Source: Escherichia coli O127:H6 str. E2348/69
GTDB taxonomy: Bacteria > Pseudomonadota > Gammaproteobacteria > Enterobacterales > Enterobacteriaceae
Length of the DNA: 64,000 bases
Strand: one strand, 5' to 3'
Assembly: GCF_000026545.1 (NCBI RefSeq)
Contig: NC_011601.1
Below are positions 12,901 through 15,900 of the stretch, piece after piece. Made by a program: the position numbers. Position 1 is the stretch's first letter, and each line of letters begins with the position of its first letter.

Positions 12901-15900
12901 ACTTTGCAAAAGCTAACTTGCCTACTCAGCTGGAAACTCTCGGGGAAATTGTGACTGAGATTTTGAAAGATGGACGTAATCTGAGTCGAAAGTCGCTTTG
13001 TGCCAAACTTCTTTGCCGACTGGAACAAGCGACAGGGGAAGAGGAACAGAAACATTATAATGCACTAATTGGGTTGCTTTTTGAATAATGCAACAGCCTG
13101 ATTATTTAACAGGTTAGCTATGAAGTCGTTATGAAGACATCTGATAATGAAAGTATAAAATATGAAATTACTGGCCAGGCGGTGCTCCAGATACTGCGCA
13201 TGAAGATAAATTTTTCGTTGCAGACTCTTATTAAGCAATTACTCGTAATGAAATCGGCTGAGGAAAATACTTTCCGACGAGATTTAATTGACAGTATAAT
13301 TCGTGATTTTAGCAACAGTGATACAGGAGGGCCAAACCGAAGAACAGCGATAGCTGACAATAAAAGTATGTTCACTGGTAAGAAAATAAACAGAATACAT
13401 TAAAATTTCATAAGTAAGATGAGAGGTTACCATGCTTGAAGATACTACTATTCATAATGCAATATCTGATAAAGCGTTATCAAGTTACTTTCGTAGTTCA
13501 GGTAATTTGTTAGAAGAAGAGTCAGCTGTGTTAGGGCAGGCTGTGACCAATTTAATGCTTTCAGGTGATAATGTTAATAATAAAAATATTATCTTAAGTC
13601 TGATACACTCCCTGGAAACAACAAGTGATATTCTCAAAGCTGATGTGATTAGAAAAACACTGGAAATCGTGTTGCGATACACAGCTGATGATATGTAACT
13701 TTTAATTATAAAGTATAAGTTTATAGAAAACTCATTCATCTTATTTTTGTCTGTCGCTTTAGACTATACACAGCATAATTTTATTGGGTCACTATTCCTG
13801 CGAGGCTGACATGAATAATTCAATCCCAGAGAGATTTATTTTTCAATGTGCTTTGTTTAAAAATCTCGAGAGGGAGGTGTTCATGACACATGGATATGTT
13901 GATAGTCATATTATTGCTCAGGCTTTACGCTTGCGTTTAAAAGATGAGACCAGTGTTATTCTTTCTGATCTCTATCTGCAAATCTTGCAGTACATTGAAA
14001 TGCATAAGACTACACTAACGGATATCATTATTAATGACAGGGAATCCGTGCTCTCTTAAAACTTGAGTAAGGTTTTTGAATAAACATCAGCTGTATCACT
14101 ATGCTGATGCAAAGTGAGCATTTCAGGCATTATGCTTTCTTAATATATCCGCAATATCAGAGGGCAAACAGGAATGGAGAACGCTCGTTTTCCATTCTTG
14201 ACGCCTGATATCCCGCCTAATTTGTTTAATTCTGCCTACATTGTGCTAAATAATTAATAGGTTAGATGAAGTTGGAGAAAATTTTATCTTCGGCGTGGAT
14301 ATTTGTGATGCTCTCTACCATGCTCTCTGTAGACCCCAGCGCGAGCGAATGAACGTCTCTTTAGCTTCTACAGACTTATCGATAAAGGCTTTGGGATTTT
14401 GATATTTATTCTGTTAATCGCCTGCGCCGCTGCCTTCCTGCTTTATAGGTATTTCAATAAAAGCGCAACGCCTGAAGAGATCCTGCGACGGGCTATAAAT
14501 AATGGGGAGATCGTCCCTTTTTATCAACCTGTGGTAAATGGTCGGGAAGGGACATTGCGGGGAGTTGAGGTGTTAGCCCGCTGGAAACAACCTCACGGTG
14601 GATATATATCACCCGCGGCATTTATTCCACTTGCTGAAAAATGCGTATTAATCGTTCCGTTTACGCAAAGCCTGATGAATCAGGTTGCCAGCCAGATGAA
14701 CGCTATCGCGAGTAAACTGCCGGAAGGTTTTCATATTGGGATTAATTTTAGCGCCTCGCATATTATTTCGCCGACGTTTGTCGACGAGAGCTTAAATTAC
14801 CGTGACAGTTTTACCCGCCGCGATTTAAACCTTGTTCTGGAAGCCAGCGAGCGTGAGCCATTAAATGTTGATGAAACTCTGGTTCAGCGGTTGAACATTC
14901 TGCATGAAAATGGTTTTGTCATCGCGCTGGATGATTTCGGTACTGGTTACTCAGGGCTTTCTTATCTGCATGACTTGCATATTGATTATATCAAAATTGA
15001 TCACAGTTTCGTTGGCCGCGTCAACGCAGACCCAGCATCAACCCGAATTCTGGATTGTGTATTGGATCTGGCGCGTAAACTTTCGATCAGTATCGTCGCT
15101 GAAGGTGTCGAAACGAAAGAACAATTTGACTATCTGAACCAAAATAATATCACATTTCAGCAGGGTTATTATTTCTATAAACCTGTTACATACATCGACC
15201 TGGTCAAAATTATCCTTTCTAAACCGAAGGTGAGGTTGTGGTTGAGTGAAAATTGATCAGCAAGGCCATGGTGCGGTGTAATTATAGACAGCTAATTAGC
15301 TCGTTGCCTCTTGTTACTATTGTTCATTCTTTTGTTTGCTATAATTGTGTGAAAGTTTTGACTGGATTGCCATTAGTAGCATGAACAATAGTAATAATCT
15401 GGATTATTTCACTCTCTATATCATCTTTTCCATTGCATTTATGTTGATCACTCTCCTGGTCATCCTTATTGCAAAACCCAGCACCGGGCTGGGAGAAGTG
15501 CTTGTGACGATAAATTTGCTTAATGCCCTTGTTTGGCTGGCGATCAATCTGGTTAATCGATTAAGGGAAAGACTCGTCAGCCACAGGGATCAGCACTAAT
15601 CTTTCAGTTTCTCACTGCCAGTATGCGGCTGAATGGGTTGCTGGCAGTGAACCCCTGGATCATTGAAGGAAAGGAATTATTGCACAAATAGTCGTCAATC
15701 CTGGTGTTATCACGGTTGTTTTTATATATCAGTGAAATAATTTCCATGGCAACTGTTGATAATTTTGATGTCGAAGAGTTATTTGTTAAACAAAATAGTT
15801 ACCCCAAAGTGATCAATGTCATGAAAATAAGCTAAAAATGATAATGCTGGCTTATTTATCATTTAAATATTGTCGCTGTTTATCTATTTAAATTTCTTGT

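Follow-up and report, generated by a model that had tools for sequence, protein, structure and literature searches.

PdeG (YcgG) of Escherichia coli K-12 is one of five CSS-domain phosphodiesterases (PdeB, C, D, G, and N). The initial annotation of the locus described here had given a protein of about 507 aa with a periplasmic CSS domain, which is correct: K-12 PdeG has 507 aa, and Pfam places a CSS-motif domain (PF12792) on residues 31-217 and the EAL domain on residues 251-486. A shortened allele of the gene is already known and published, as ycgG2, as CFT073 c1610, and as truncated YcgG; it was reportedly first listed in a comparative study by Povolotsky and Hengge in 2016. The allele is textbook knowledge in E. 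coli c-di-GMP research: it gives phylogroup B2 strains a sensor-less PdeG, which in ExPEC affects adherence, fimbriae, and the metabolism of citrate and iron. In the neonatal-meningitis E. coli strain IHE3034, ycgG2 starts at a TTG and encodes 283 aa; it was translated in vitro and showed activity in a rugosity assay with V. cholerae, and its product was seen by western blot in the wild type in comparison with a ΔycgG2 mutant (Zlatkov and Uhlin, 2019; PMC6385356). The phenotype of a CFT073 Δc1610 mutant was complemented by a heterologous phosphodiesterase (PDE) (Spurbeck et al., 2012; PMC3484386), and truncated YcgG was reported in B-11870, Tob1, and all ST131 (Cimdins-Ahne et al., 2023; PMC10459773). 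The topic of truncated YcgG has been reviewed (PMC10333796). For PdeC, a TM2+EAL fragment generated by DegP/DegQ is highly active, and its TM2 promotes dimerisation (Herbst et al., 2018; PMC5897775).

The stretch of DNA analysed here (the window, 64,000 nucleotides) matches strain E2348/69 (EPEC O127:H6, phylogroup B2) at 100%. It carries a pdeG remnant flanked by ymgC and ymgF, the same neighbours as in K-12, and the ymgC-pdeG-ymgF synteny together with a nucleotide identity of 96.6% across the 879 bp that remain identifies it as the orthologue of K-12 pdeG (ycgG). In pairwise alignment, window positions 14000-14353 correspond to 4301-4650 of the K-12 region, where the pdeG ATG lies at 4692; pairwise and multiple alignment agree that the retained leader stops 41 bp before the place of that ATG. 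One clean deletion separates the window from K-12 and from the closer full-length alleles in both kinds of alignment: the sequence of the full-length alleles missing between 14353 and 14357 amounts to 668 bp, lost in a single piece that held the final 41 bp of the leader with the ribosome-binding region, the ATG, TM1, and residues 1-210, that is, nearly the whole periplasmic CSS redox sensor of PdeG. The junction reads ...GAATGAACGT(C)|TCTTTAGC..., and no filler bases are needed when the APEC O78 full-length allele is taken as reference. An identical junction was found in 919 of 5,426 complete E. coli genomes (∼17%), among them the type strain ATCC 11775; Nissle 1917 also has a short allele. 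The proposal that this is pdeG with its sensor region deleted was borne out by the alignment to K-12, in which the EAL domain looks intact and most of TM2 is left. K-12 PdeG does not share the length and N-terminus of the E2348/69 ORF, given its 507 aa and the deletion seen in pairwise alignment. We concluded that the locus is almost certainly, in identity as in origin, the published phylogroup-B2 deletion allele of pdeG. The coordinates are collected in Table 1.

Table 1. Features of the pdeG locus of E2348/69 (positions in the window).
Feature	Coordinates	Strand	Remarks
ymgC-pdeG intergenic region and leader, retained	14060..14353	+	collinear with K-12 upstream of the pdeG ATG
28-codon ATG ORF, hydrophobic, signal-peptide-like	14266..14352	+	upstream-region sequence
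Deletion junction (scar)	14354..14357	+	668-bp loss, 1 nt (C) microhomology
pdeG remnant, K-12 codons 211-507	14357..15256	+	PGAP pseudogene
Longest ORF with canonical start (TTG), 285 aa	14399..15256	+	TTG is Leu225 of full-length PdeG
TM2 remnant MIFILLIACAAAFLLY	14399..14446	+	Kyte-Doolittle
EAL domain, PF00563	14477..15184	+	ORF residues 27-262
1-bp deletion and altered C-terminus RLWLSEN*	15232..15256	+	lineage-specific

PGAP labels the remnant 'cyclic diguanylate phosphodiesterase, incomplete, missing N-terminus' and treats it as a pseudogene. Our ORF listing agreed with the initial annotation in that the EAL ORF opens at a TTG and that its upstream extension meets an in-frame stop, the TAG at 14330-14332. 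Because of this stop, translation has to begin at an internal site, for which the TTG at Leu225 is the first canonical start; the reading frame is the one published as ycgG2, with 283 aa in other B2 strains. A Pfam search of the window protein returned the EAL domain only (PF00563, 212.2 bits, E = 9e-63, model positions 2-236 of 236), scoring 10 bits below that of K-12. The CSS domain PF12792, with its two conserved cysteines, gave no match in this protein because residues 1-210 are deleted. The pair of TM segments flanking the sensor is likewise absent, TM1 being deleted and TM2 partial: 15 consecutive apolar residues follow the TTG, vs. about 19-20 in full-length PdeG (Kyte-Doolittle mean 3.06 over the first 15 residues of the TTG ORF; the K-12 hydrophobic peak spans GFGILIFILLIACAAAFLL). 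The NCBIfam equivalog PRK10551 was matched over profile positions 243-511 of 518 only, at 242.1 bits, well short of the 461-bit cut-off. None of the invariant residues for catalysis and metal binding has been lost (E57, R61, D178, D179, K199, E235, E238, and Q255, window numbering), and the nearly invariant EAL residues N116, E148, and E151 are present too; the sole deviation in the catalytic/metal-binding set is the T of ExTE, which is replaced by S (T374S). An S is also listed at the position equivalent to T374 in the CFT073 PDE c1246 (PMC3484386). Scanning 13950-15450 for sigma-70 promoters revealed no plus-strand match 5' of the remnant, with match counts at shuffle level, and an Rfam scan of 9000-20000 returned nothing at gathering thresholds. 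Covariation was sought in a hairpin at 14169-14202, which showed one-sided changes only and no compensatory pairs.

In the published account of ycgG2, the TTG is a mutation that arose after the deletion (PMC6385356). We found a TTG at Leu225 also in full-length alleles, namely in those of APEC O78 and FDAARGOS_1281 and in roughly one in five of the long alleles sampled, and it therefore predates the deletion or is independent of it. As read from these alleles, the TTG is a standing Leu225 polymorphism.

The E2348/69 copy differs from other short alleles at its 3' end and in its coding changes. A 1-bp deletion between 15232 and 15233, the only frameshift at the locus, lies five codons before the normal stop and beyond the Pfam EAL match; it changes the C-terminus from KVKVVVE* to KVRLWLSEN* and moves the stop by 6 nt, so that the product has 285 instead of 283 aa. 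This deletion is common to E2348/69, other O127:H6 assemblies, and A25 (monkey), and is missing from all other alleles examined, short or long; all eight other short alleles examined encode a 283-aa product ending in KVK(V/I)VVE, vs. 285 aa in E2348/69 and A25. With A25, E2348/69 also shares V373A, T374S, and S384T, and it has D240Y, G307V, L312F, R322S, C355S, and one synonymous change in addition. Together, the E2348/69 lineage shows 8 nonsynonymous to 1 synonymous change (8N:1S) vs. 13N:36S elsewhere on the tree (Fisher p = 7e-4), with the reservation that these are small counts obtained by hand parsimony over 13 sequences, recombination ignored. The point estimates of dN/dS are 2.4 and 0.11, respectively. 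Compared with the neutral expectation, 8N:1S gives a binomial p of 0.35; the ratio is compatible with neutrality and equally with adaptive change. Five of the eight replacements fall at positions conserved in 22 diverse homologues (Enterobacteriaceae); two of the five, G307V and T374S, lie in the AEKSGLI and ExTE motifs, respectively. Private substitutions number 8-9 in 858 bp of the remnant, 17 in ∼1,600 bp of the neighbouring ycgH pseudogene, and 20 in 7,836 bp of intact neighbouring genes, so that the remnant has the density of ycgH and about four times that of the intact genes (Poisson p = 0.002 to 0.0005). Import by recombination as the origin of the E2348/69-specific changes was rejected by reasoning, as an imported patch would be mostly synonymous. 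Other short alleles have changes of their own: the ATCC 11775/O18:H1 sub-lineage carries G460D in the invariant EGVE motif, and another sub-lineage has a second deletion.

Several other explanations were weighed against this one. The initial annotation had added a 5' frameshift to the sensor deletion, with TM1 kept in another frame as the 28-codon ORF. That ORF was confirmed; it encodes MKLEKILSSAWIFVMLSTMLSVDPSASE, has a hydrophobic stretch, and sits just 5' of the EAL ORF, as such a reading would expect. It aligns, however, 43-129 bp upstream of the K-12 pdeG ATG and is present 5' of full-length, intact pdeG in K-12 (with a shifted start codon), APEC O78, and FDAARGOS_1281; PGAP leaves it unannotated. 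The K-12 TM1 MRNTLIPILVAICLFITGVAILNIQLW lies wholly within the deleted 668 bp, and the sole other indel between window and K-12 at the 5' end is one of 4 bp in the intergenic region, so that the single deletion explains the 5' end with no frameshift. The displaced-TM1 reading is thus refuted at the sequence level by alignment, and we give it hardly any weight. A sequencing or assembly artefact, which the initial annotation had also considered, is more improbable still: the remnant is identical in three O127:H6 assemblies, two further strains share the 1-bp deletion, and the junction recurs in the 919 complete genomes.

As to the state of the remnant, the initial annotation had asked whether it is a pseudogene or an unregulated EAL phosphodiesterase. 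This was the right question, on which the two sources differ: PGAP calls a pseudogene, and the literature shows activity in other B2 strains. The reading that in E2348/69 it is a fully functional, constitutive, membrane-tethered EAL PDE, with the excess of changes due to adaptive tuning or chance, can point to an intact ORF with a 212-bit EAL match and complete catalytic residues, and to expression and activity of the same allele class in IHE3034, CFT073, and B-11870. All short alleles examined have one and the same TTG leader region (14354-14443), and by a crude SD/anti-SD energy the TTG, at -5.1 kcal/mol, does not fall short of the native K-12 ATG (-4.0), although 20% of background positions also reach -4 kcal/mol or lower. 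The dN/dS of 2.4 could mean positive selection, but 8N:1S is not significantly above neutral, five of the eight changes hit conserved positions, an extra 3' frameshift is present, the substitution density is that of the ycgH pseudogene, and the PGAP annotation is against it; we regard full function as rather doubtful. The 3' frameshift, the 8N:1S ratio, and the ycgH-like density indicate that purifying selection has apparently been lost in the E2348/69 lineage, and on balance the sequence comparisons favour a remnant that is functionally decaying, most likely a relic on its way out or, at the most, a PDE with weak and unregulated activity. Some observations run counter to decay: the ORF is open for 285 codons with every invariant catalytic and metal-binding residue kept, the majority of the eight exchanges are mild in chemical terms (T→S, V→A, L→F, C→S, S→T), and the 3' frameshift touches the last five residues only. 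The published activity data come from strains with alleles that differ from that of E2348/69. It is improbable that the TM2-EAL form has been positively selected in EPEC O127:H6 as a rewired constitutive PDE, or, alternatively, that full-length pdeG already makes a short isoform from the Leu225 TTG, which the B2 deletion then fixed. Overall, a B2 deletion allele that appears to be decaying in E2348/69 is the best explanation, and we hold it with good confidence.

The 668-bp deletion with its 1-nt microhomology left codons 211-507, and a start at the Leu225 TTG would yield a complete EAL domain preceded by three-quarters of TM2. By analogy with other B2 strains and with the paralogue PdeC, the product may be a low-level and active c-di-GMP phosphodiesterase, which would convert c-di-GMP to pGpG; the published activity is that of related alleles from other strains (PMC6385356; PMC3484386; PMC10459773). 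Such a product would probably escape disulfide control by DsbA/DsbB and processing by DegP/DegQ because the part that they target is deleted, and it would resemble the proteolytic TM2+EAL fragment in a genetically fixed form.

The locus is a reminder for annotation, as PGAP gives a pseudogene label to an ORF whose expression has been shown by experiment in some strains. Short pdeG alleles are not interchangeable, which matters when E2348/69 or the type strain serves as a PDE model. The small additions made here are the pre-existing TTG in full-length alleles, the E2348/69 copy that changes at a pseudogene rate and is hit at conserved residues, and the G460D sub-lineage. The findings on the remnant open no new question of broad interest.

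Compared with the described systems, the remnant is closest to ycgG2, c1610, and the YcgG of B-11870, which likewise belong to phylogroup B2, have lost the N-terminal membrane and CSS part, and retain an EAL-only ORF with TTG as the first start. The junction is presumably the same as in IHE3034, as judged by its published description (PMC6385356). The B2 substitutions S306C, F358Y, E437A, L467F, and Y474N are common to the remnant and the published allele, whereas the E2348/69 copy has 285 instead of 283 aa and eight more amino-acid changes. The papers describe a soluble 'stand-alone' PDE; the window product, in contrast, keeps 15 of the ∼19 TM2 residues. The Tob1-type truncated YcgG (PMC10459773), represented here by strain XYEH3783, likewise is what remains of pdeG in a B2 strain and keeps an intact 285-aa EAL ORF, but it is shorter by another 219 bp, lacks TM2, and borrows its ATG from an upstream intergenic ORF, which gives a novel 22-aa N-terminus (MESARFPFLTPDIPPNLFNSAY); this second deletion is absent from the window. 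About 70 genomes are of the Tob1 type, an indirect count obtained by subtracting the 919 with the E2348/69-type junction from the 989 with either short form, since the Tob1-type junction query also joined both halves in ordinary short alleles. Full-length K-12 PdeG has the same locus and EAL domain, whereas the remnant lacks its start codon, TM1, and CSS residues 1-210. The PdeC fragment arises post-translationally and from a paralogue, whereas the form in the window is encoded directly and starts about 4 residues into TM2.

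Around the pdeG remnant, a 1.9-kb stretch is 100% identical to the E. coli E2348/69 (EPEC O127:H6) chromosome and, at ≥90% identity, has matches in 5,059 of the 5,426 complete E. coli genomes. The gene order, bluF(-), ycgZ, ymgA, ariR, ymgC, pdeG remnant, ymgF, ycgH fragments, ymgD(-), and ymgG(-), is that of K-12 from bluF to ymgG. Global alignment with K-12 gave three collinear blocks. Window 14000-14353 corresponds to K-12 sequence that stops 41 bp before the pdeG ATG, and position 14354 onward picks up at codon 210/211, with 668 bp missing. With K-12 as the reference, the junction appears to hold three odd bases (CGT). 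The closer full-length allele of APEC O78:H4 reads ...GAATGAACGTCATTTTC... on the left side, and judged against it the junction is that of a clean deletion, with a single microhomologous base: ...GAATGAACGT(C)|TCTTTAGC... The deleted segment spanned the last part of the leader, any ribosome-binding site in it, the native ATG, TM1 (MRNTLIPILVAICLFITGVAIL...), and residues 1-210, which make up almost the whole CSS domain. The initial annotation had proposed a sensor deletion accompanied by a frameshift; the sensor is indeed deleted, and the alignments contain no 5' frameshift.

The layout left after the deletion is LFSFYRLIDKGFG-ILIFILLIACAAAFLL-(TM2)-EAL. The TTG-opened EAL ORF of the initial annotation, its upstream closure, and a separate 28-codon ATG ORF in another frame were all recovered, and K-12 PdeG is 507 aa long as given there. 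In K-12 PdeG, Pfam places a CSS-motif domain (residues 31-217) ahead of an EAL domain (251-486). The window protein has the EAL domain alone (residues 27-262, 212 bits, only 10 bits below K-12 PdeG) with a complete catalytic residue set. Its match to PRK10551, the NCBIfam full-length model, is confined to profile positions 243-511 and scores 242 bits against a cut-off of 461, far under threshold. Since the TTG-started product keeps 15 consecutive apolar TM2 residues (mean hydropathy 3.06) before YRYFNK, "most of TM2 plus EAL" is a fair description of the remnant, and membrane anchoring by this short segment is putative.

Positions of features at the pdeG locus, in its neighborhood, and in other E. 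coli genomes
Feature	Position	Strand
ymgC-pdeG intergenic hairpin	window 14169-14202	+
28-codon ATG ORF	window 14266-14352	+
TAG closing the EAL frame upstream	window 14330-14332	
TTG-opened EAL ORF (285 aa)	window 14399-15256	
ycgH autotransporter pseudogene	window ~15900-17520	+
hlyE/clyA (hemolysin E) remnant	window 24750-25073	-
dsbB	window ~27070-27600	
Short pdeG allele of ATCC 11775	L003:1597-2445	
Nested deletion allele of XYEH3783	L011:775-1632	

The 28-codon ORF had been taken as a displaced TM1 cut off by a 5' frameshift. We rejected this reading: the K-12 counterpart of the ORF lies 5' of the pdeG start codon, and the ORF also precedes intact full-length pdeG in 94_0962, APEC O78, FDAARGOS_1281, and K-12, where its start is shifted by two codons. 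It resembles a signal peptide (MKLEKILSSAWIFVMLSTMLSVD-P/A-SA|SE, with an AxA-like motif) and is kept upstream of pdeG whether the gene is full-length or truncated; among alleles, its start codon shifts and several of its amino acids differ. The E2348/69 and K-12 records leave it unannotated, and it may be either a relic N-terminus or a small ORF that annotation has missed. The strong intergenic hairpin (14 bp, -24.1 kcal/mol, z = -4.5 vs. shuffles) persists in both K-12 and B2 alleles via one-sided (G-U) changes only. No T-run follows it and it matched no Rfam family; it could stabilize the 3' end of the ycgZ-ymgABC transcript or serve as an element of the pdeG leader.

A 100-nt probe centered on the junction found an unbroken match in 919 of the 5,426 genomes (17%), including the E. 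coli type strain ATCC 11775; in the rest, the two probe halves matched separately. Nissle 1917 also carries a short allele, and PGAP annotates all short copies examined as pseudogenes "missing N-terminus". A second deletion allele, nested and shorter by 219 bp, is present in strain XYEH3783; in it, an intergenic ATG ORF is joined in frame to K246 to give 285 aa with a novel 22-aa N-terminus and without TM2, in agreement with the published description of YcgG-Tob1. This type is present in ~70 complete genomes (by difference, 989 vs. 919). Lesions outside B2 among the genome-search matches include an IS1 insertion separating the CSS and EAL parts (H24), a bigger upstream loss (H39), and a "CSS-motif domain-containing protein" with its own annotation (H73), and ~370 genomes lack any match to the pdeG stretch. 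pdeG appears generally prone to loss.

Other genes nearby are also degraded. ycgH is ~1.1 kb shorter and more broken up than in K-12 (in PGAP, three small "hypothetical proteins" and a frameshifted beta-barrel fragment). The hlyE/clyA remnant, which lacks its N-terminus and is an annotated pseudogene in E2348/69, ATCC 11775, strain 4/4, and APEC O78, is a further deletion relic. dsbB, whose product drives the disulfide controlling CSS-domain phosphodiesterases, lies ~12 kb from the sensor-less pdeG, probably by coincidence.

For comparison with the remnant, we used eight other short alleles and four full-length ones. The TTG has been suggested to be a mutation that followed the deletion (PMC6385356), which the long alleles contradict: codon 225 is TTA in K-12 and 94_0962, but APEC O78 and FDAARGOS_1281, whose alleles are also full-length, have TTG, and in the junction search about one-fifth of the sampled long alleles matched through the G of this codon. 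Given its presence in full-length alleles, the "rare start codon" is a standing synonymous Leu polymorphism.

In the E2348/69 copy, one base pair is deleted five codons ahead of the stop (KVKVVVE* to KVRLWLSEN*, 285 aa). This deletion is common to strain A25 (monkey), the same-length allele of a pig isolate, and the other O127:H6 assemblies, and is absent from the remaining alleles examined. Relative to the base short allele of strain Z1323HEC0067, V373A, T374S, and S384T came earlier and are common to A25; D240Y, G307V, L312F, R322S, C355S, and one synonymous change came later. The lineage thus has 8 nonsynonymous to 1 synonymous changes vs. 13:36 elsewhere in the tree (Fisher p = 7e-4; dN/dS-like ratio 2.4 vs. 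0.11). Five of the eight fall at positions conserved in 22 diverse Enterobacteriaceae homologues: G307V (conserved in 18/22), L312F (19/22), C355S (19/22), V373A (V or I in 21/22), and T374S (21/21 residues and one gap; T of the ExTE motif). Across 15.5 kb aligned from four genomes, substitutions private to E2348/69 numbered 8-9 per 858 bp in the remnant, 17 per ~1,600 bp in the neighboring ycgH pseudogene, and only 20 per 7,836 bp in the intact genes ymgD to umuD (remnant vs. intact genes, Poisson p = 0.002 to 0.0005). As this density is like that of ycgH and above that of intact genes, we concluded that the remnant evolves at a pseudogene rate in this lineage, on small counts. The 8:1 ratio, also from small counts, is compatible with neutrality (p = 0.35) and likewise with positive selection.

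With the E2348/69 lineage excluded, changes confined to short alleles (~8N:11S) vs. long-allele and between-group changes (5N:25S; Fisher p = 0.09) hint that constraint relaxed generally once the deletion had occurred. The short alleles of ATCC 11775, AH20I049, and an O18:H1 strain (loci L003, L004, and L005) carry G460D, a change in the EGVE motif at a glycine invariant in 22/22 homologues. G460D may account for lower PDE activity in some B2 strains, and it argues for independent degradation of the enzyme in different B2 sub-lineages.

The allele has been studied in sister strains. Zlatkov and Uhlin named it ycgG2, with a TTG start and a 283-aa, 32-kDa product that was translated in vitro, acted as a PDE in a Vibrio cholerae colony assay, and was detected natively in IHE3034 by western blot; ΔycgG2 phenotypes were reported (Zlatkov and Uhlin, 2019, PMC6385356). 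Deletion of c1610 in CFT073 gave an adherence/FimA phenotype complemented by a heterologous PDE (Spurbeck et al., 2012, PMC3484386). Two truncated YcgG variants were compared and all ST131 strains stated to carry the deletion (Cimdins-Ahne et al., 2023, PMC10459773), and a 2023 review notes frequent B2 truncation (PMC10333796). The E2348/69 deletion is therefore an already published, common B2 allele, to which the TTG origin and the strain-specific decay signal add minor refinements. By analogy with sister alleles, transcription would come from the retained upstream region, with weak initiation at TTG225, and the predicted TM2-remnant-EAL protein would hydrolyze c-di-GMP without periplasmic redox or protease control; the substitution pattern suggests that in E2348/69 this hydrolysis may no longer be maintained by selection. 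The mechanistic expectation for a sensor-less PdeG is provided by its paralogue PdeC, in which the TM2+EAL fragment generated by DegP/DegQ is highly active and TM2 promotes dimerization (PMC5897775).
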